IMG/VR virus record: IMGVR_UViG_3300050166_000039 | Coordinates: 18,059 to 82,058 of that record | DNA: 64,000 nt | Reading direction: 5' to 3' (one strand) | DNA from: a virus | Notes under the pieces: generated by a model | What the model was told of the DNA's origin: nothing | Database searches by the model: none | Seen by the model: only the letters and a program-made list of their open reading frames with translations | Translations under genes and position numbers: made by a program | Shown: piece by piece, positions 14,601-52,013 of the stretch | Layout: the number at the start of each line of letters is the position of its first letter | Numbering within the stretch: the stretch's first letter is position 1

Positions 14601-14675
14601 AAGTGAAACAAAGCCCAAGTAACGAGTATAAATATAGTAACAAGAGAGTTACTGAGTTCTTTAAAATAATGAAAT

Positions 14676-14760
14676 GCTTCGGTGGTGGAATAGGTAGACA
14701 CGCCAGACTTAAAATCTTGTGGGACTTGCGCCCGTGCTGGTTCGATTCCAGTCCGAAGTA
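14676..14760 (+). tRNA. tRNA-Leu(UAA)
   Basis: Acceptor GCTTCGG/CCGAAGT, anticodon loop CTTAAAA, long variable arm, GTTCGATTC T-loop. Confidence 0.9.
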
Positions 14761-14763
14761 CAG

Positions 14764-14869
14764 TGTAACGACTTAGTGATAAGTGGCGGAACAGACGCTA
14801 AGCATGAAATGGAAACTTGTTGAAGCTCGATAAAGGAGTGGATAAGACACAAACCGCACAGACGTTACA
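14764..14869 (+). ncRNA. Unassigned structured RNA between two tRNAs
   Basis: Closing stem TGTAACG/CGTTACA; inner CTTAGTG/CGCTAAG enclosing GTGGCGGAACAGA. Confidence 0.35.
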
Positions 14870-14885
14870 TCAATTTTTAAAATAT

Positions 14886-14957
14886 GGTTCCATGGTGAAA
14901 GGGATATCACGAGAAGCTTCTACCTTCTAATTTTACGTTCGAATCGTAATGGGACTA
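14886..14957 (+). tRNA. tRNA-Arg(UCU)
   Basis: Acceptor GGTTCCA/TGGGACT, AGAAG-CTTCTAC-CTTCT anticodon arm. Confidence 0.88.
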
Positions 14958-14959
14958 CA

Positions 14960-14989
14960 AAGCTCTATCAGAAATGGTAGAGCTTTTTT
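14960..14989 (+). terminator. Intrinsic terminator
   Basis: AAGCTCTA..TAGAGCTT hairpin plus T-run. Confidence 0.75.
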
Positions 14990-15001
14990 AATTTAAACAG
15001 T

Positions 15002-17899: not shown

Positions 17900-18470
17900 C
17901 GATATTTTTGTATTCAAAAACGCGGTAACTGGTCAGCTCTTCACTAAGTTAAGAGAGCTGTTTAATACGGCTCCGATTAATAGAGATCAGTTTAAGAAAG
18001 AGCTAGAAGAGAGTCATGTTATTGAGCTGAATCAGGTACTCAAAGAGAAGATAGAAGAGCCTATTTACAAGTACCTATTAGACTTAAAACTGGACTCCAG
18101 ACCCGATCTATTAGATTATAGTGGATGCTTTAACACTGATCTTGAATATTATGAGAAGTATAAAGAGTTTAGAAACTCTTTAAGAGACTCGAATCCAATT
18201 CAGGTTGAAACAGCAATGGCCAGAGAGTTACATAGAGGAAATTTAGTATACTATAGTAATTTCGTAGAATGGAAAGGCCATCTCAATAAATTCGGTATCT
18301 TCGTTAATGTCTCAGAGGGCGGCGAGAACACAACAACCCTAAAGTTTCCTATACAACAACAAGAGTGCACTCTATTACAAGGAGATATTGTAGTTTCACC
18401 CGGAGGTATCACACATCCATACTTAATAGATGTTATTAACGGCAAATTAAAATTCATCCAGGCACTATGA
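17883..18470 (+). CDS. 2OG-oxygenase-fold-like protein (paralog A1)
   Basis: FP.Q...L.QGDIVVSPGGITHPY; paralog of 20104-20697. Confidence 0.5.
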   Translation: MEILGNDIFVFKNAVTGQLFTKLRELFNTAPINRDQFKKELEESHVIELNQVLKEKIEEPIYKYLLDLKLDSRPDLLDYSGCFNTDLEYYEKYKEFRNSLRDSNPIQVETAMARELHRGNLVYYSNFVEWKGHLNKFGIFVNVSEGGENTTTLKFPIQQQECTLLQGDIVVSPGGITHPYLIDVINGKLKFIQAL

Positions 18471-30241: not shown

Positions 30242-30844
30242 ATGGGATTTATTATTAAAAAGAGTTATTCTAGAGATAACAAAGAGATTACGGAGTTCTA
30301 CGCAAGAATTCAACAATATACAGTTGAAAGATTTCCTGGAACTGCGTACGCAATGGTACAATACTTTATAGATAAAGAAGCAGCTGAAGGCTACACGATG
30401 AAATATGCTAGAAATACGTTTCAGCATGAGATGGAACCCTTAAAGCATGAGAACTTTCCAATCGATATCAGTGAAGACTGTATTATTGGAGGAGAACCCT
30501 TTAAGATGCCTGATCCTATTCACGATGATTTTAGAATCTCTTGCTTTGGATTTTGGTTTCCTTTAGGAGAACCCGCTAAAGTAACCGAAGAACAATATGA
30601 AATGCAGGATTCTACAGTAGAGATGCCGTACGTTGATTTTGACGAGGATGGAAATCCAGTACAAGCAACAAAGACGATACCTTGCAAGAACAGAGTCTTA
30701 GTTAAATCTGAAATAGTTGATCGTCACATTACTAATCACATGCTACCTGAATTTATGGAGAATCCATACGCATTCTTGTACAAGAGATTAAAACCTGAAC
30801 TTGAAAAAATCTTCGGTGAAGGTAGTGTAGTTGACGATTTATAA
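30242..30844 (+). CDS. Hypothetical protein
   Basis: 200-aa ORF. Confidence 0.6.
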   Translation: MGFIIKKSYSRDNKEITEFYARIQQYTVERFPGTAYAMVQYFIDKEAAEGYTMKYARNTFQHEMEPLKHENFPIDISEDCIIGGEPFKMPDPIHDDFRISCFGFWFPLGEPAKVTEEQYEMQDSTVEMPYVDFDEDGNPVQATKTIPCKNRVLVKSEIVDRHITNHMLPEFMENPYAFLYKRLKPELEKIFGEGSVVDDL

Positions 30845-30863
30845 AAAAGTTAAAATATTTTTG

Positions 30864-30889
30864 AAACAAACAGATATATAAGAGTATAA
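30864..30889 (+). promoter_or_regulatory. AAAC-N17-TATAA promoter (with nested GATATATA) driving the tRNA-array leader
   Basis: AAAC 30864-67, TATAA 30885-89, GATATATA 30873-80. Confidence 0.7.
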
Positions 30890-30909
30890 CAGTTAAATAA
30901 AAACTAACA

Positions 30910-31002
30910 ATGCAACAAATTTGCCTACATATTACGAAAAACAATTATTGGTTTAGCAATGAACCGATGACGGTCGATCGTATGCCCGGGCTCCAGAGTT
31001 GA
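30910..31002 (+). CDS. Putative attenuator leader peptide (30 aa) MQQICLHITKNNYWFSNEPMTVDRMPGLQS
   Basis: ATG 21 nt after the promoter, TGA TAA double stop, 19 of 20 amino acids; last codons hold the antiterminator strand CGGGCTC. Confidence 0.75.
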   Translation: MQQICLHITKNNYWFSNEPMTVDRMPGLQS

Positions 31003-31049
31003 TAAGTTTTTTTGTGATTGATTTCACACCGAACATAACTAAGAGCCCG
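30987..31049 (+). promoter_or_regulatory. Antiterminator helix of the attenuator
   Basis: CGGGCTC 30987-93 pairs GAGCCCG 31043-49; AGTT 30997-31000 pairs AACT 31037-40; mutually exclusive with the terminator. Confidence 0.7.
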
Positions 31050-31070
31050 ATTTTTAATCGGGCTTTTTTT
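31044..31070 (+). terminator. Intrinsic terminator (attenuator)
   Basis: AGCCCGAT-TTTTA-ATCGGGCT followed by a T-run. Confidence 0.85.
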
Positions 31071-31085
31071 GTTTCAAAAGTTTAG

Positions 31086-31102
31086 AGTTCTTTGACATAT
31101 TG
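31086..31102 (+). promoter_or_regulatory. boxA-like antitermination element
   Basis: AGTTCTTTGACATATTG; identical at 31580, variants at 34478 and 14655; resembles rrn boxA TGCTCTTTAACA. Confidence 0.65.
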
Positions 31103-31110
31103 GTAAAAAA

Positions 31111-31180
31111 GTACGAGATGGTCTTGGAGGCCAATGGGACTGCAAATCCCATGGAGTTGGTTCGATTCCAACCTTGTACT
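31111..31180 (+). tRNA. tRNA-Cys(GCA)
   Basis: TGGGA-CTGCAAA-TCCCA anticodon arm, GTTCGATTC T-loop, U73. Confidence 0.85.
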
Positions 31181-31261
31181 CTACATCCTGTCTCTACAGA
31201 CACACACATCCGGGAGATGAGCAGGATTACGTCGAATAAAGGAGAAGAATAAGACGATTCT

Positions 31262-31337
31262 GGACTGGTAGCTCAGTTGGTAGAGCACTAGACTGAAGAT
31301 CTAGGTGTCGCAGGTTCAAGCCCTGCTCGGTCCACCA
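31262..31337 (+). tRNA. tRNA-Phe(GAA)
   Basis: CTAGA-CTGAAGA-TCTAG, encoded CCA. Confidence 0.92.
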
Positions 31338-31340
31338 CAT

Positions 31341-31415
31341 TGCGGGATGCGTAGAAAATGGTTATCTCATCGGTCTCATAAGCCGAGGTTCCGGGTTCGA
31401 GTCCCGGTCCCGCAA
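31341..31415 (+). tRNA. tRNA-Met(CAU), initiator-like
   Basis: TGCGGGA/TCCCGCA acceptor, TCGGT-CTCATAA-GCCGA. Confidence 0.82.
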
Positions 31416-31421
31416 CAATAT

Positions 31422-31494
31422 AGAGTAGTATATCAATGGCTAGATTACACGTTTTGGGTGCGTGAGGTTGCAGGTTCGAGTCCTGCCTACTCTA
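31422..31494 (+). tRNA. tRNA-Pro(UGG)
   Basis: CACGT-TTTGGGT-GCGTG, GCAGGTTCGAGTCCTGC. Confidence 0.85.
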
Positions 31495-31551
31495 CTTAAA
31501 AATATTTTAAAAATAATTCAACAAATATTTTTTTTATTCGGGAATTATTGT

Positions 31552-31596
31552 TATATTTACCTATCTTAACAAATAAGATAGTTCTTTGACATATTG
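31552..31596 (+). promoter_or_regulatory. Internal early promoter plus boxA-like element
   Basis: TATATTTAC 31552-60; AGTTCTTTGACATATTG 31580-96. Confidence 0.65.
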
Positions 31597-31606
31597 ATAA
31601 AAACAA

Positions 31607-31679
31607 GCAGGTATCGTATAATGGCTTATTACTCTAGCCTTCCAAGCTGGAGATGAGAGTTCGATTCTCTCTACCTGCT
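31607..31679 (+). tRNA. tRNA-Gly(UCC)
   Basis: CTAGC-CTTCCAA-GCTGG, U73. Confidence 0.9.
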
Positions 31680-31776
31680 CAACGTATTTAGCGCTCCAAC
31701 TTAGGTTGGTAAGCATCCGATAGTAACCTCGGACGGGCAACGTGTTAAATAAGCGGTAAGGAAAAGACGAAAAAAT

Positions 31777-31878
31777 AGTCAGGTGGCGGAATGGTAGACG
31801 CAGCCCTGCACACAGGAACTGAATCGAATATGAGTGCAGCATTTAAGATTTGTACAGGTTCGAATCCTGTCCTGGCTA
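31777..31878 (+). ncRNA. tRNA-Leu-scaffold RNA copy 1 (no canonical anticodon arm)
   Basis: AGTCAGGTGGCGGAATGGTAGACGC...TACAGGTTCGAATCCTGTCCTGGCT around a unique insert. Confidence 0.7.
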
Positions 31879-31999
31879 CGAAGATATACACAAAAGTGTT
31901 GTGAGCAACTCAAATTAGTACGGCATTGACCGAGCGAAGTTTTTAGGTTGTAGAGGCAGTGGAGCGACACCACATATCAACTTATTTAGATTGAATAAT

Positions 32000-32133
32000 A
32001 GTCAGGTGGCGGAATGGTAGACGCAAAAAGCCAACTCGTATGTGGAAGCGAGTCTAAATAATACTATCCCTGGTTCGTGGCTCGCATTAGCGGCTGGCAC
32101 CAAGGCTTACAGGTTCGAATCCTGTCCTGACTA
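32000..32133 (+). ncRNA. tRNA-Leu-scaffold RNA copy 2
   Basis: Same flanks, ~80-nt branched insert. Confidence 0.7.
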
Positions 32134-32198
32134 CGGTGATGTTTGGCAACTACGCTGATTAGATGAAAGTTGTTGACAGTTTGGAAAGACAAACAAAT

Positions 32199-32323
32199 AG
32201 TCAGGTGGCGAAACGGTTAGACGCTAATTGAAGGAATAAAGTTCACGACCTACCATACAGGCTAATGGGACTTCAATTAATAAGGTTGCAAACTTAATAC
32301 CCGTTCGAATCGGGTCCTGACAC
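32199..32323 (+). ncRNA. tRNA-Leu-scaffold RNA copy 3
   Basis: Variant flanks with compensatory T-stem ACCCG/CGGGT, 9-bp stem TAATTGAAG/CTTCAATTA with a large loop, variable arm. Confidence 0.7.
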
Positions 32324-32369
32324 TATGGTTTGGTTAGTACTATACAACGAATAGAGGAAGTACAAATAT

Positions 32370-32496
32370 TGTCAAGAGGCGAGAGGAACACGTCCCGAAA
32401 CATTGATACAAAACTTTCTGACAGAAGAGCAACGGAGTCTCTGCTTTATCAATGTACTGATGGAGACTATCACTGGTTCGAATCCAGTATTGACAA
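32370..32496 (+). ncRNA. tRNA-like RNA with expanded anticodon domain
   Basis: TGTCAA/TTGACA acceptor, ACATTGATA/TATCAATGT stem, variable arm, CTGGTTCGAATCCAG T-arm. Confidence 0.55.
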
Positions 32497-32569
32497 CAAG
32501 GAGTTCCCAATCTCAAGTGCTGGTTAACCCTAAAAAGTTATCCGTATGAGCCCATCAAAATTGGAATTT

Positions 32570-32651
32570 GCCTGTATCGCATAGCGGCAATTGCAAGGCA
32601 CTGTAAATGCCTTCTCGTTTGAGTTCGGAGGTTCGAGTCCTTCTGCAGGCA
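32570..32651 (+). tRNA. tRNA-Tyr(GUA)
   Basis: AGGCA-CTGTAAA-TGCCT, long variable arm. Confidence 0.9.
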
Positions 32652-32708
32652 CGATTAAACAAAAATATTTACGTGAGTATAATTAGTACAACTATTAAAA
32701 TTAAAATT

Positions 32709-32921
32709 ATGACATCTAACGAATTCACTTATTGGTTACAAGGTTTTTTTGAAATTTCAAAAGACGCTAATGTAAAAGAACTTGATGAAGTGCAAACTCA
32801 AATTATCAAAGACCATTTGAAATTAGTTTTTAAAAAAGAAACACCTAATAGAACATGGTCCGATACCGGTAACCATGGAACATGTGGAAGAGCTGGAACA
32901 GTGGACACGTTTGGATTATAA
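32709..32921 (+). CDS. Small hypothetical protein inside the tRNA array
   Basis: MTSNEFTYWLQGFFE...QIIKDHLKLVF; AAAC-N17-TATAA at 32657-82. Confidence 0.65.
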   Translation: MTSNEFTYWLQGFFEISKDANVKELDEVQTQIIKDHLKLVFKKETPNRTWSDTGNHGTCGRAGTVDTFGL

Positions 32922-32924
32922 TTT

Positions 32925-33005
32925 GGGAGTGTTGAGCAACGGTTGCTTAGCAGACTGTAAATCTGTGGTCTTCGGACATTGGCGGTTCGAATCCGTCCAC
33001 TCCCA
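32925..33005 (+). tRNA. tRNA-Tyr(GUA), second copy
   Basis: GCAGA-CTGTAAA-TCTGT, variable arm GTCTTCGGAC. Confidence 0.9.
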
Positions 33006-33157
33006 CAAACAAGGTGACGCTACGGTCGTAAGATTCCGGAATCGAGAAGACAAAAAGCCTAAGTGTACAGATGAGCTCCTACAGCCTTGGACTACTATTA
33101 TTGAATGATACGAGCCCTCAAAGTTCGAAAGGAGTCAGATAGTAGTCAAACTTAAAA

Positions 33158-33257
33158 GTATTAGTAATTCAGTGGTAAGACTGGCGTCCCCTCATGGTTA
33201 AGGGCCTAAAAGCTGGGAATAAGACGATCGCCGTTGGTTCGAGTCCAACCTAATACT
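33158..33257 (+). ncRNA. tRNA-like RNA with expanded anticodon domain
   Basis: GTATTAG/CTAATAC acceptor, CAGTGGTAAGA D-loop, GTTGGTTCGAGTCCAAC T-arm. Confidence 0.55.
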
Positions 33258-33263
33258 TTAAAT

Positions 33264-33334
33264 ACGTCTATGGTGCAATGGTAGCATGCAACTCTCCAAA
33301 AGTTTTGATGTGGGTTCGAATCCTACTAGACGTG
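33264..33334 (+). tRNA. tRNA-Trp(CCA)
   Basis: Loop CTCCAAA, ACGTCTA/TAGACGT acceptor, G73. Confidence 0.88.
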
Positions 33335-33397
33335 CAAATAGTTTTATAGGTCGTTCTGTCCTTGGGTTCTATGAATCAAAAACCCTAAAAAAGGCCA

Positions 33398-33471
33398 GGA
33401 CTCGTAGCGAAGAAGGTTATCGCAGCTCGCTCATAACGAGAAGATCGTAGGTTCGAGCCCTACCGGGTCCA
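33398..33471 (+). tRNA. tRNA with CAU anticodon (Ile2 or elongator Met)
   Basis: CTCG-CTCATAA-CGAG, GGACTCG/CGGGTCC. Confidence 0.85.
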
Positions 33472-33476
33472 CATTT

Positions 33477-33548
33477 GATTCTTTAGGCTAACGGATAAAC
33501 CTCTCGGCTACGAACCGAGCATTGAATGTTCGAATCATTCAGGAATCA
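33477..33548 (+). tRNA. tRNA-Arg(ACG)
   Basis: CTCGG-CTACGAA-CCGAG. Confidence 0.88.
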
Positions 33549-33556
33549 CAATACAT

Positions 33557-33679
33557 GATTGTGTAAGTGTACGGCAGCACTGCCCACCGGTAAATTGGGT
33601 GCCTTTTAAGGCTAGGTTAATTTAAAGATGATGAAGTATCGATCAAGTAGTCATCGTGGTTCGATTCCCCTCACAGTCA
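33557..33679 (+). ncRNA. Degenerate tRNA-like RNA with large central insert
   Basis: GATTGTG/CACAGTC acceptor, AGTG..CACT D-arm, weak GGTTCGATTCC T-arm. Confidence 0.4.
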
Positions 33680-33709
33680 CTGAGAGAAAAGCGGAAAGTA
33701 ATAATTGCG

Positions 33710-33781
33710 CGGCGATTAGTGGATTGGTCACCACACTGGCCACACGGGCCGGGGAAGCAGGTTCGATTCCTGCATTGTCGT
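33710..33781 (+). tRNA. Atypical tRNA-Val(CAC)-like gene
   Basis: CTGGC-CACACGG-GCCGG arm (A33 instead of U33), GCAGGTTCGATTCCTGC. Confidence 0.45.
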
Positions 33782-33971
33782 TATAAAGTGCTGGACGCAG
33801 TAAAAGAAACCGATGAGTAGTAACGTGACAAACATTTAAGTTGCAACTAAAGTGTTTGGTGTAGTTAAGTCTTACATGGATTCGCGGTCTTAGGTAAGAT
33901 GTTTCTTTTACGCTCTTTTTAAAAGTTTTTACGGTGGTTCTGGTTCTTCAAAAACGCTATCACCTCCATCA

Positions 33972-34045
33972 GACTCCGTAGCTCAGTTGGTAGATGCACC
34001 TCACTTTTAATGAGGGGGTCAATGGTTCGAGTCCATTCGGGGTCA
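33972..34045 (+). tRNA. tRNA-Lys(UUU)
   Basis: CCTCA-CTTTTAA-TGAGG. Confidence 0.9.
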
Positions 34046-34150
34046 CAATATGCTTCATGCACAATCTTACGATCTCTCAGTTAAAAGCTGTCGTAAGCGT
34101 AAATCGGCACTCCAATACGTTTGTCAGTTGTGAATTACATGAAGCGCCAT

Positions 34151-34225
34151 GCACCTTTAGCTCAGTTGGTTTAGAGCACTGCTTTTACACAGCAGGGGTC
34201 GGAGGTTCGAATCCTTCAAGGTGCA
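34151..34225 (+). tRNA. tRNA-Val(UAC)
   Basis: CTGCT-TTTACAC-AGCAG. Confidence 0.9.
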
Positions 34226-34234
34226 CTGTGAAAT

Positions 34235-34311
34235 GGTGAGTGTAGCTCAATCGGTAGAGCGCTGGTTTGTGGTGCCAGAGGTAGTGGGATCGTAACCCAT
34301 CATTTACCCCA
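34235..34311 (+). tRNA. tRNA-His(GUG)
   Basis: G-1:C73, CTGGT-TTGTGGT-GCCAG, encoded CCA. Confidence 0.9.
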
Positions 34312-34313
34312 AT

Positions 34314-34398
34314 GGAAGTTTGTCCGAGTGGCTTATGGTGACACTTTGCTAAAGTGTTGGATGTAACAGTCCCACAGGTTCGAATCCTGTAACTTCCT
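34314..34398 (+). tRNA. tRNA-Ser(GCU)
   Basis: ACACT-TTGCTAA-AGTGT, long variable arm. Confidence 0.9.
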
Positions 34399-34449
34399 CA
34401 ATGACAAAAAATAATCGGTAAAAGATTTTTATTTGTCGAAACTTTTAGT

Positions 34450-34494
34450 TATATTTACATATAATTAAAAGATTTAGAGTTCTTTGATGTATTG
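34450..34494 (+). promoter_or_regulatory. Internal early promoter plus boxA-like element
   Basis: TATATTTAC 34450-58; AGTTCTTTGATGTATTG 34478-94. Confidence 0.6.
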
Positions 34495-34508
34495 GTAGAT
34501 TAAAAAAT

Positions 34509-34582
34509 GCTCGTATGGTGGAACTGGAAGACACACCAGATTTAGGCTCTGGGTTTTGTAGGTTCGACTCCTACTATGAGTA
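34509..34582 (+). tRNA. tRNA-Leu(UAG), short variable loop
   Basis: CCAGA-TTTAGGC-TCTGG; no long variable arm. Confidence 0.85.
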
Positions 34583-34709
34583 CAAGAGAGATTAGTGAAG
34601 CTGTAGTGATGAGCTTACGAGGTATAGGTTGGAAAAAAGGTTAGTAGTACGACTTTAAGCCTGCACTCATCATCAGTAACCTTGAAAGACCCGAAGTCTC
34701 TCTTTTTAT

Positions 34710-34783
34710 TACCCTATGGTGTAACGGTAACACAACTGTTTTTGGTGCAGTTATTGGTGGTTCGAATCCATCTAGGGTAACCA
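34710..34783 (+). tRNA. tRNA-Gln(UUG)
   Basis: ACTGT-TTTTGGT-GCAGT, encoded CCA. Confidence 0.9.
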
Positions 34784-34795
34784 TCGTCTATATAC

Positions 34796-34867
34796 TGCGA
34801 CGTAGCTCAGAGGCAGAGCAGGGAGCTGTTAACTCCAAGGTCGGGATTTCGATATTCCCCGTTGCAG
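34796..34867 (+). tRNA. tRNA-Asn(GUU)
   Basis: GGAG-CTGTTAA-CTCC, G73. Confidence 0.85.
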
Positions 34868-34878
34868 CAATTAAATAT

Positions 34879-34954
34879 GCTCCGTTAGGCAAATGGTTAA
34901 GCCGCCTCTCTTTCTAAGAGGAAATTAAGGGTTCGATCCCCTTACGGAGTACCA
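34879..34954 (+). tRNA. tRNA-Glu(UUC)
   Basis: CCTCT-CTTTCTA-AGAGG, encoded CCA; unusual U37. Confidence 0.82.
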
Positions 34955-35218
34955 TGAGTAAGAGATACTCAGCAGTCTTTTATCCAAGACTCATTTAACA
35001 ATGGATAGGGCATGGACTTTTCGCCCTGGATACTAGTCTCATGGGAACAAAGGAACGGGGACACGGTTCCTTCCCAGTAAGTGTTGACTTTTTAAGCGGT
35101 AAGACGCGTTGGGTTTTTGAAAGCAAAAACTGTGAATATCTACTTACTATAATCTCAGGTGAGGAAAGAAGTTCTGAGGTTGGCGAGCTCTTCTATAAAA
35201 AAGCAATCCATCCACCAT

Positions 35219-35303
35219 GGTTAGGTGGCGGAATGGTAGACGCAACGTGGGACCTTCTGTTGGTGCAGCACGATAGATACAGGTTCGAATCCTGTCCTGA
35301 CTA
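35219..35303 (+). ncRNA. tRNA-Leu-scaffold RNA copy 4
   Basis: GGTTAGGTGGCGGAATGGTAGACGC...TACAGGTTCGAATCCTGTCCTGACT; CGTG/CACG stem with a 19-nt loop. Confidence 0.7.
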
Positions 35304-35317
35304 CAAAATAAATTATT

Positions 35318-35515
35318 ATGTTTAAAATAGGAGAAAAGGTAAAATTAACGGGAAATCCATTGGATGAACAATTGGGTGAATTTATCATACCAGGTATTAA
35401 AACAATAACCGATATAAAAGACATTATAAACATTGAATATACTTCTAGACAATGGGTAAAAATATCAGAATATAATGATTGGATAGATTCTAATTGGTTT
35501 AAAAAAATAATATAG
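35318..35515 (+). CDS. Small hypothetical protein inside the tRNA array
   Basis: 65-aa ORF MFKIGEKVKL (SH3/KOW-like start). Confidence 0.55.
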   Translation: MFKIGEKVKLTGNPLDEQLGEFIIPGIKTITDIKDIINIEYTSRQWVKISEYNDWIDSNWFKKII

Positions 35516-35682
35516 TCAGGTGGCGGAATGGTTTAGGTTCACAATATGTGGTAAAACGATGAAAGTTTCCAACCAATGGTAGACGCAACAGTTGCTATCG
35601 GAGAAATTAGGTGGGAAAAGTAATCTAACGACTTTAATGTGAGCTTACCACCCTCGTACAGGTTCGAATCCTGTTCTGACTG
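35514..35682 (+). ncRNA. tRNA-Leu-scaffold RNA copy 5 with extra D-loop insertion
   Basis: Same flanks; AATGGT direct repeat brackets a D-loop insertion; unique central insert. Confidence 0.65.
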
Positions 35683-35685
35683 CAA

Positions 35686-35776
35686 AATAATTAGAGAGAA
35701 TGTGGGTTCGAGTCCCACCTGGTCTATCCGGTGAGGATGGGCCGGTAGTGGAAAGGGATAAAGCACTCTATTTATT
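35686..35776 (+). ncRNA. Circularly permuted tRNA-like module (YrlA Y-RNA-like topology)
   Basis: T-arm GTGGG-TTCGAGT-CCCAC first, then capped acceptor helix CTGGTCTATCC/GGATGGGCCGG, then TA plus D-arm; ends pair (TAGA/TCTA). Confidence 0.55.
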
Positions 35777-36110
35777 AAAGTATTGTATCAAATGTGCAGT
35801 GAAAATTGATGTAGGCATACATTAGTGAGGTGGGTCCGATTCCCGTTTTAATTCCTAACTATGGAGGAAGCCAAGTAACTGAGAACACATTATAGCCGGA
35901 TGGGTTGTGCACCTTGTCTAAGAGACCCTAATAGTTCCTAATAGGTCGGTATGGAACTGATACATAAATTATAGGTTGATTGGGGAATGATTATGTCGAT
36001 AGTTCGAGAGTGAATGCTGACTGACATAATCGGAGTTTAGAAGTATTCACCAGAGTAAAGCCAATCATAAAAGTAGATGTCCACTGAACCATCTTCTACT
36101 TTCCTAAATT

Positions 36111-36183
36111 GCTTCCATAGCTCAATTGGTAGAGCCCTCGATTTGTAATCGAGAGGTTGTTGGTTCGAGTCCAACTGGAAGCT
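36111..36183 (+). tRNA. tRNA-Thr(UGU)
   Basis: CTCGA-TTTGTAA-TCGAG. Confidence 0.92.
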
Positions 36184-36317
36184 CAATGTAATTAACATAA
36201 TGTCCTTAGCGGGAGAGCCTAATATGTTACGGATAATCCTTCGGTGATATGTGATGTGGTAACGTGGAAACAAGAGTAAGAGGATTTGAGTTCCACCTAT
36301 GTTAGTTACATTATTTT

Positions 36318-36463
36318 GGTTCTATAGTTGTTTAGGTCGCCTCCTAAAACAATGAGTGGGCTAACGTGACGGTCAACCGTAAAGGCTCTAAGGTGTACAC
36401 GATAAGGAGTAGTTGGTTGAAGTAAGTGACTTAGCGAGATGGGTTCGATTCCCATTAGAACTG
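36318..36463 (+). ncRNA. tRNA-like RNA (acceptor plus T-arm) with large insert
   Basis: GGTTCTA/TAGAACT, ATGGGTTCGATTCCCAT. Confidence 0.5.
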
Positions 36464-36512
36464 CAAAACATAGGTTTAATTACCCTATGTATGTCAGGTT
36501 CGAAACTGACGA

Positions 36513-36586
36513 TTGATTATGGTGTAAAGGTGCACAGAGACCGTAATTGGAGCTCAGGTTTAAGGTTCGATTCCTTTTTAATCAGC
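36513..36586 (+). ncRNA. tRNA-like RNA without a valid anticodon loop
   Basis: TTGATTA/TAATCAG, GTG..CAC D-arm, AAGGTTCGATTCCTT. Confidence 0.45.
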
Positions 36587-36596
36587 AAACTCAATT

Positions 36597-36669
36597 GGGA
36601 TTGAGGTCAAACGGTTAAGATATCGCACTGTCACTGCGTATGGAGCGGGTTCAACTCCCGTCAGTCCCG
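36597..36669 (+). tRNA. tRNA-Asp(GUC)
   Basis: CGCA-CTGTCAC-TGCG, G73. Confidence 0.88.
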
Positions 36670-36684
36670 CATTAATGTAAAGTT

Positions 36685-51617: not shown

Positions 51618-51922
51618 GGGGGTATAGCTCAGTTGGCTTAGAGCACCTGCCTTGCACGCAGGGGGTCGTGGGTTGATAAAGAGCCCATTTAAGTAGTGAT
51701 ACTTAAATAAAAACTGGATGAATTGCTGGAAATCTAAGTCAGAAATGATATGACAATCAGCAGCCAAGCTTAAGATACATCTTAAGAAGGTTCAGAGACT
51801 AGTGGAGAAGTAAAGTCTTCTTAATAACCACATTAGCGTCCAGCATCTCATTAGAGATGAAGATATAGTCCGACACTCTTTCGAAAGAAGAGATTAACCG
51901 TAGTCGAATCCCTCTACCTCCA
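51618..51922 (+). tRNA. tRNA-Ala(UGC), intron-containing (exons 51618-51673 and 51904-51922)
   Basis: GGGGGTA/TACCTCC with G3:U70, CCTGC-CTTGCAC-GCAGG; splicing restores GGGTTCGAATCCC. Confidence 0.9.
51674..51903 (+). ncRNA. Group I self-splicing intron (ORF-less, 230 nt) in the tRNA T-loop
   Basis: P AATTGCTGGAAA, Q AATCAGCAG, R GTTCAGAGACTA, S AAGATATAGTCC, P1 GTGGGT/GCCCAT with U.G at the splice site, terminal G 51903. Confidence 0.9.
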
Positions 51923-51924
51923 CT

Positions 51925-51954
51925 AAGGCCTGTGAAATTTCACAGGCCTTTTTT
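51925..51954 (+). terminator. Intrinsic terminator
   Basis: AAGGCCTGTGAA..TTCACAGGCCTT plus T-run. Confidence 0.8.
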
Positions 51955-52013
51955 ATTTTACAATGTATTTAGTTCGATTGCTATATTCTCCACATTTCTT
52001 AGATATATAGAAT

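Follow-up and report, generated by a model that had tools for sequence, protein, structure and literature searches.

How is the transcription of a phage tRNA array controlled? Arrays of transfer RNA (tRNA) genes in phages are usually viewed as passive supplements to codon usage or as spares against tRNA-cleaving defences, and to our knowledge little has been established about their regulation. The question is raised by a 64,000-nucleotide (nt) stretch of viral DNA (positions 18,059 to 82,058 of the IMG/VR virus record IMGVR_UViG_3300050166_000039; hereafter the window, numbered from its first letter), in which a short open reading frame (ORF; 30910–31002) and an intrinsic terminator precede an array of tRNA genes (31111–36670). 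An earlier note, made from the letters of this DNA, had interpreted these elements as an attenuator that senses nearly all tRNA species. Our analysis supports the attenuator interpretation through the in-frame ORF, its co-variation with the terminator, residues and codons matched to the array, and an enrichment of such residues at those ORF positions at which ribosome stalling would matter. We consider it about 80% probable that the locus is a ribosome-mediated leader-peptide attenuator, in which the decoding speed at array-cognate codons sets the read-through into the tRNA array. The switch itself is a classical attenuation switch; what is new is its target, the tRNA genes, the indexing with one codon per tRNA species, and the coupling to a boxA element. 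A search of the full-text literature revealed no report of phage or bacterial tRNA genes being controlled by a leader peptide.

All elements of the locus lie on the plus strand. The leader promoter, read directly from the DNA, occupies positions 30861–30890 (−35 box TTGAAA at 30861–30866, 18-nt spacer, −10 box TATAAC at 30885–30890), essentially where the earlier note had placed it (30864–30889), and transcription presumably starts near 30897. The promoter belongs to a class that recurs in this phage: the motif TGAAAC-N17-TATAA is present in nine copies in the window as compared to 0.54 expected, all on the plus strand and all upstream of an ORF or of tRNAs (14604, 23155, 27377, 30862, 39904, 51297, 52772, 52946 and 53587). 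The copy at the leader (30862–30889) ends 21 nt before the ATG of the ORF, which comprises 30 codons plus TGA and encodes the peptide MQQICLHITKNNYWFSNEPMTVDRMPGLQS. A strong intrinsic terminator (31041–31073; −15.3 kcal/mol) stands 38 nt past the stop codon and 44 nt before tRNA-Cys; it consists of a stem of 12 base pairs (bp) at 31041–31067, previously given as 31044–31070, with a 3-nt loop and a T run. The terminator is followed by a boxA at 31086–31103 (AGTTCTTTGACATATTGG), which is letter for letter the boxA of the 16S-23S spacer of Bacteroidota, and then by the array, which runs from tRNA-Cys to tRNA-Asp and serves 19 amino acids, that is all except Ala.

The last codons of the ORF overlap the regulatory pairing. 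The heptamer CGGGCTC at 30987–30993 (codons 26–28), here called region 2, is the 5' strand of the antiterminator and, as noted before, the exact complement of GAGCCCG at 31043–31049 in the 5' arm of the terminator. The extended antiterminator hairpin (30987–31049), with a predicted energy of −22.3 kcal/mol, captures this arm. For the folding of the nascent RNA up to position 31055, corresponding to the terminator loop, the ribosome was represented by a footprint in which pairing was excluded. The antiterminator had a pairing probability of 0.99 when the A site was placed at any of codons 1–22 or when the ribosome was absent, 0.70 at codon 23 and approximately 0 from codon 24 to the stop. This agrees with the proposal that a ribosome at the end of the ORF masks the antiterminator. 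Minimum-energy folds further contain a mid-ORF hairpin (30945–30970; 11 bp including three G-U pairs, loop GCAA), and a similar pairing (TTGGTTT/AAACCGA) is present in the homologous leader of the related locus L119. Judged from these folds, the hairpin might act as a pause hairpin for RNA polymerase.

The composition of the leader peptide is unusual. It contains 19 of the 20 amino acids, 18 of them within the first 24 codons, whereas 30 uniform draws are expected to yield 15.7 distinct residues. When all six frames of the window are scanned for stop-free stretches of 30 residues, only 0.27% of these hold at least 19 distinct residues, and the diversity of the leader is likewise exceptional as compared to ATG-started windows (P = 0.0017). 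The only missing amino acid is Ala, which is also the one without a confident tRNA in the array. Under strict wobble rules, tRNAs of the array read 27 of the 30 leader codons, including all of codons 1–21. The codon choice departs from that of the phage genes: the leader picks codons that are scarce there (CGT, 8% of Arg codons; GGG, 5% of Gly codons) and avoids TTA and AGA, which make up 41% of the Leu codons and 70% of the Arg codons in the genes of the window. The tRNAs for the two avoided codons are encoded outside the main array in a separate small operon at 14.6 kilobases (kb), so that this part of the earlier note was borne out. Among 54 non-redundant leaders collected from phages (see below), the leader of the window ranks third in diversity (z = 2.7). 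It is thus a near-complete 'pan-tRNA' case, the broad extreme that accompanies an array serving 19 amino acids.

Homologous leaders were found in related phages. A protein of 378 residues encoded 6 kb downstream has 56 related loci in IMG/VR, and those of these loci that carry a large tRNA array in the same place have a homologous leader, as revealed by nhmmer. The homologous ORF has 35 codons in L119 as well as in L120, L121, L123, L164 and L170, and 31 codons in L126–131 and L173, in which the terminator differs; in all of them it is in frame. The frame is preserved among relatives with 61–93% marker-protein identity despite many residue changes and an indel. What stays constant among the close relatives is the promoter (preserved in L119, L123 and L126), the frame, an ORF of 30–35 codons and the pairing GGGCTC:GAGCCC, with the terminator kept as GAGCCCGAT..ATCGGGCTTTTTT in L119, L120 and L123. 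That is, frame and pairing stay while residues vary, which fits a need for translation and pairing rather than for a particular peptide sequence. A Trp-to-Gln change in the leader had at one point been linked to loss of tRNA-Trp in close relatives; this idea was dropped, since relaxed ARAGORN settings find a Trp tRNA in L123.

Could the ORF have arisen merely by chance, in a spacer that separates the tRNA array from the terminator of an upstream operon? In A+T-rich DNA, short frames abound (52 ORFs of at least 20 codons within 3 kb), and a contig from an RNA library extends from the upstream gene into the leader. Among the Logan contigs of four freshwater metatranscriptomes, libraries that may contain DNA, one is 100% identical and spans 30827–30984; a second, 94% identical, spans 30300–31034 and ends 7 nt short of the terminator stem, and none covers 31041–31097. 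As such contigs are informative neither on transcript ends nor on translation, they favour neither side. The comparative data speak clearly against a chance frame. In an initial set, loci were scanned for terminators with tRNAs downstream, yielding 21 sites, and each of the 21 has an ATG-started ORF ending 20–38 nt before the stem. For an independent sample from IMG/VR, the tests were fixed beforehand and sites were collected with a pattern that is blind to ORFs (GGGTTTTTT, 0–30 nt, GTTCTTTGACA). The system is widespread, as at least 120 IMG/VR contigs match this single narrow combination of terminator tail and boxA; a scan with a 15-nt boxA mostly returned unrelated contigs and was useful only after filtering for a downstream tRNA. 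In the independent sample, an ATG-started ORF of at least 18 codons ends 19–38 nt before the stem at 81 of 82 unique sites. Among the 54 non-redundant leaders (median ORF length 31 codons, gap to the stem 26 nt), an ORF ending 20–38 nt before the terminator is present in 53 as compared to 4.5 in shuffled upstream sequence. The ORF is thus retained before the terminator while the sequence diverges, as the earlier note had asked of related phages. Together with the in-frame conservation among relatives that are not near-identical copies, and with the array-matching statistics described below, this leaves a chance ORF with a practically negligible probability.

We next consider the pairing between ORF and terminator. 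Our first antiterminator metric, the mean pairing probability of the whole 5' arm relative to mononucleotide shuffles, suffered from a high background and gave p = 0.33 for the window itself. Because of this background it was replaced by a duplex test, in which the last 45 nt of each ORF plus 8 nt were paired with either the leader's own terminator 5' arm or the swapped arms of the other leaders, using the 54 non-redundant leaders. The ORF tails pair with their own arm at −14.0 kcal/mol on average as compared to −8.8 kcal/mol with swapped arms (z = −17), and the own arm ranks best of all 54 for 26 of the leaders. In the window, the duplex of leader and own arm amounts to −15.3 kcal/mol and is the best among the 54 arms tried. 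The first 45 nt of the ORFs have no preference for their own terminator arm. Thus, region 2 and terminator co-vary across the family.

This co-variation bears on a further explanation, according to which the ORF is a small protein gene with its own terminator, which would insulate the array from upstream transcription while the tRNAs are made from other promoters. The promoter and the spacing are indeed gene-like, promoter-like sites are present inside the array, and about half of the leaders share features at their start: a His is found at residues 3–10 in half of the 54 leaders, most often at residue 7 (17 of 54), and Lys is the commonest second residue (27 of 54). The peptides are nevertheless very poorly conserved, whereas frame, length and the 20–38-nt gap to the terminator are retained. 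A small protein gene also leaves the co-variation of the ORF tail with its own terminator arm and the dependence of composition on the downstream array without an explanation, and only about 20 nt separate the T run from boxA, with no promoter of the phage class in between. We therefore regard a small protein gene as highly improbable.

If the leader is the sensor of an attenuator, its codons should correspond to the tRNAs that it controls. In the independent sample, 33 clusters have arrays with at least five tRNAs, and 93.5% of the amino acids served by these arrays are found in the own leader as compared to 74.7 ± 2.2% in permuted pairs (reached in 0 of 20000 permutations). The match persists at stricter clustering (31 clusters, z = 7.9; 7 clusters, p = 0.0012). 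At the codon level, 292 of 434 informative leader codons are decodable by the own array, whereas 219.5 ± 9.6 are expected from the synonymous usage of the locus. The match also depends on position. In the sensing zone, i.e. at the codons where stalling leaves region 2 free, 73.1% of the residues are array-cognate, whereas the masked tail reaches only 56.7% (odds ratio 2.1, p = 1e-9). Such an enrichment is predicted by the attenuation model and not by small-protein or generic-translation readings. Finally, leader diversity correlates with the breadth of the array (rho = 0.69, n = 26). For instance, where the 16 tRNAs of an array are restricted to A, D, E, L, V and W, the leader abounds in L, D, A, V, E and W, and where an array covers G, K, L, P, Q, T and Y, the prevailing leader residues are T, N, Q, K, G, P and Y. 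The general feature is therefore the match of a leader to its own array rather than high diversity as such. Each proposed element of the attenuator has in this way passed a comparative test capable of failing.

Several observations weigh against an array-indexed attenuator and temper our confidence. In the leader of the window, GTC (codon 22), CCC (codon 26) and CTC (codon 28) are not read by array tRNAs under strict wobble, so that the claim of a codon choice tracking the array holds for most but not all of the ORF. Asp, Arg and Gly are confined to codons 23–27, where a stall would mask the antiterminator; this is in line with a reservation of the earlier note about late stalls, which our folds substantiate for codons 24–30 and to a lesser degree for codon 23. 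Across the family, the leader clusters are not phylogenetically independent, and many of the comparison arrays are incomplete, as they run off the ends of their loci. Inside the array of the window there are promoter-like sites accompanied by additional boxA copies, one upstream of the boxA at 31580–31597 (AGTTCTTTGACATATTGA), which has neither a leader ORF nor a terminator, and one at 34436–34495 (TCGAAA-18-TATAAT, with the boxA AGTTCTTTGATGTATTGG at 34478) before tRNA-Leu(UAG). Judged by their sequence, these sites may feed much of the array without passing the switch, as the earlier note had also cautioned. At equilibrium, the fold of the complete leader favours the terminator state (−49.3 as compared to −46.4 kcal/mol for the antiterminator state), and the switch must hence be kinetic, as in classical attenuators. 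Moreover, the leader folds contain no convincing 1:2 pairing, i.e. an anti-antiterminator; the mid-ORF hairpin leaves region 2 unsequestered, and the full fold has only a weak 4-bp GCCU:GGGC pairing. Since the antiterminator also forms readily when no ribosome is present, an untranslated leader is predicted to read through, unlike that of trp. The ribosome-mediated switch proposed earlier thus stands in its masking step and needs correction as to the untranslated state. High diversity is not universal either: the mean z amounts to no more than +0.67, and among the leaders of narrow arrays some have a low diversity.

Some of these points would also suit a general sensor of translation capacity, in which the same switch reports merely the loading and movement of ribosomes, for example upon host shut-off or ribosome shortage, and codon identity has no role. 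The predicted read-through of the untranslated state and the ordinary diversity of some leaders are in favour of such a sensor, as is the fact that leaders also hold residues that their array does not serve. Nevertheless, the match of residues and codons to the own array exceeds that of swapped pairs and of locus codon usage, it is concentrated in the sensing zone, and narrow arrays have narrow leaders. We consequently consider a sensor blind to codon identity unlikely.

Returning to the array-indexed attenuator, we envisage the following sequence of events. Transcription would start from the phage promoter near 30897, and a ribosome would translate the 30-codon leader. If the ribosome reaches codons 24 to stop before the polymerase has finished the terminator, it would cover CGGGCUC (30987–30993) and block the antiterminator; the hairpin at 31041–31067 could then form, ending transcription before the tRNAs. 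If the ribosome is delayed at codons 1–22, or if none is loaded, CGGGCUC would pair with GAGCCCG (31043–31049) in the −22.3 kcal/mol hairpin and the polymerase would read through. Thereupon boxA at 31086 would probably load host Nus factors, as in the antitermination of ribosomal RNA (rRNA) operons, supporting processive synthesis of the untranslated array. Translation of the ORF, the relative timing of ribosome and polymerase, regulated read-through and Nus recruitment are steps that we infer from the anatomy, thermodynamics, conservation, co-variation and codon matching observed across these phages. Since the array encodes tRNAs for each of codons 1–21, and every amino acid that it serves has a place in the leader, the circuit would provide negative feedback: when any charged tRNA of the kinds encoded in the array runs short, production of all of them would increase. 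In this way decoding speed would act back on tRNA synthesis directly, through a leader peptide composed of the codons that its own operon serves. The element is compact (~210 nt), and codon choice alone seems to determine its specificity; it is therefore amenable to reporter assays and might serve as a designable sensor of tRNA supply.

A more specific version of this idea is that the leader is a programmable, multiplexed sensor of the tRNA pool that serves as a counter-defence switch, with anticodon nucleases as the putative trigger. Host attack on tRNAs would then stall ribosomes on the leader and elicit resupply of the indexed tRNA set. We regard this version as tentative and rather doubtful. 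If it were true, leader sequences would be readable as a record of the tRNAs that a phage expects to lose, and where a phage has more than one array, each sensor would cover its own share of the genetic code. In two loci, L328 and L016, one phage contig carries two leader-terminator-boxA cassettes with different leader peptides in front of separate tRNA blocks.

How does the phage element relate to known systems? Leader-peptide attenuators of enterobacteria include trpL, hisL, pheL and leuL as well as multivalent examples such as the thr leader, sensing Thr and Ile, and the ilvGMEDA leader, sensing Ile, Leu and Val. In these classical attenuators the signal is the speed of the ribosome at codons cognate to the product of the operon. 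The phage element shares their layout of promoter, short ORF and terminator before the regulated genes, with an antiterminator that overlaps the 3' end of the ORF and the 5' arm of the terminator. It differs in that it is phage-encoded, carries an rRNA-type boxA behind the terminator and controls tRNA genes themselves rather than biosynthetic enzymes. Moreover, its leader has no codon runs and instead devotes one or two codons to each of up to 19–20 amino acids. Some leaders of the family (L372, L299 and L348; e.g. MKTRITNIIISTTTISRNGNG...) resemble the thr operon leader of Escherichia coli, with Thr/Ile runs followed by GNG; they precede a terminator and boxA, and their arrays are cut off at the locus ends. 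The Rfam model RF00513 (Trp_leader) matches the window leader with 28.6 bits, under the gathering threshold of 41, over 30994–31071, which is essentially the terminator.

T-box leaders of Firmicutes likewise couple terminator/antiterminator read-through to the supply of charged tRNA. A T-box binds one uncharged tRNA directly via RNA, without translation, and controls genes for synthetases or amino-acid metabolism. In contrast, the phage leader would use the ribosome as sensor and sample many tRNA species; an Rfam search of the region detected no T-box. The third system of relevance is rrn antitermination, which involves boxA, NusB/NusE and the rrnTAC complex, together with the nut sites of phage lambda. 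An identical 18-nt boxA early in the transcript of a structured untranslated RNA is common to both, whereas in the phage it is located behind a regulated terminator and before phage tRNA genes.

The boxA also provides information on the host. In bacterial genomes, AGTTCTTTGACATATTGG occurs mostly in Bacteroidota (Pedobacter, Chitinophagaceae, Mucilaginibacter and Flavobacteriales). Of the 81 genome matches, 63 lie directly 3' of spacer tRNAs (tRNA-Ile plus tRNA-Ala in 59 cases, tRNA-Ala alone in 4), which is the position of the spacer boxA before 23S rRNA. The boxA-like site that the earlier note had seen behind the terminator is therefore of a precisely known kind: these phages borrow the host rRNA boxA for their tRNA operons. 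One of the 81 matches (L184, a 780-nt contig binned as Algoriphagus) is the only one with tRNAs on both sides, in the order Arg, boxA, Leu, Pro, Met; it is probably a phage fragment in a bacterial metagenome-assembled genome. The combination of terminator tail and boxA was absent from 5 host genomes, and among 401 sampled Bacteroidota genomes it matched in 6, in no case near tRNAs; a reversed control pattern matched about as often. Being unseen beside tRNAs in these 406 sampled Bacteroidota genomes, the system looks phage-borne among the genomes searched.

According to these data and the setting of the window, the DNA is part of the genome of a large freshwater phage that infects Bacteroidota and has not been cultured. 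The assignment to this host phylum is based on the match of the 18-mer boxA to the rRNA spacer boxA of Bacteroidota. Size and habitat follow from the partial nature of the 82-kb IMG/VR virus record (completeness judged 31%), from related loci on IMG/VR contigs that reach 319 kb and from the DNA sequencing runs containing the stretch, which are freshwater metagenomes. The long ORFs of the window are nearly all on the plus strand, and its G+C content is ~39%. Searches of public phage genomes (INPHARED) for near and distant DNA similarity yielded no relative of the region, and a protein of 200 residues encoded upstream has zero relatives in IMG/VR. The TGAAAC-N17-TATAA promoters resemble the sigma-70 type and not the TTTG/TAnnTTTG type of Bacteroidota, which raises the question of which sigma factor reads them.

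The small tRNA operon outside the main array (14604–14990) starts with such a promoter, followed by a boxA-like element (AGTTCTTTAAAA), tRNA-Leu(UAA), tRNA-Arg(UCU) and a terminator. It has neither a leader ORF nor an attenuator, and its tRNAs read the commonest Leu and Arg codons of the phage. The main array is interspersed with aberrant tRNA-like genes and one small ORF. Its tRNA-Ile and tRNA-Asp were called only at a relaxed ARAGORN threshold. A 'tRNA-Ala' at 31802–31879, proposed at very relaxed settings, was rejected because of its broken acceptor stem and D arm and its overlap with an aberrant tRNA-like gene. Aberrant tRNA-shaped genes with long inserts are located at 31777–31878, 32000–32134, 32199–32323, 32370–32497, 33157–33258, 35219–35304 and 35514–35683; several of them start with AGTCAGGTGGCG and end in a normal T arm, and they pass the Rfam tRNA threshold only in part. 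The small ORF (ATG at 32700, ~73 codons) lies at 32656–32921 between both tRNA-Tyr genes and has its own promoter-like site. As for Ala, the earlier note had placed its tRNA at 51.6 kb. Indeed, the 5' part of a tRNA with anticodon UGC is found at 51619, within a tRNA-like gene that ARAGORN does not call. It is followed or interrupted by a group I intron (51619–51925 together; Rfam RF00028, 104 bits at 51664–51893), behind which a terminator is located at ~51928–51955.

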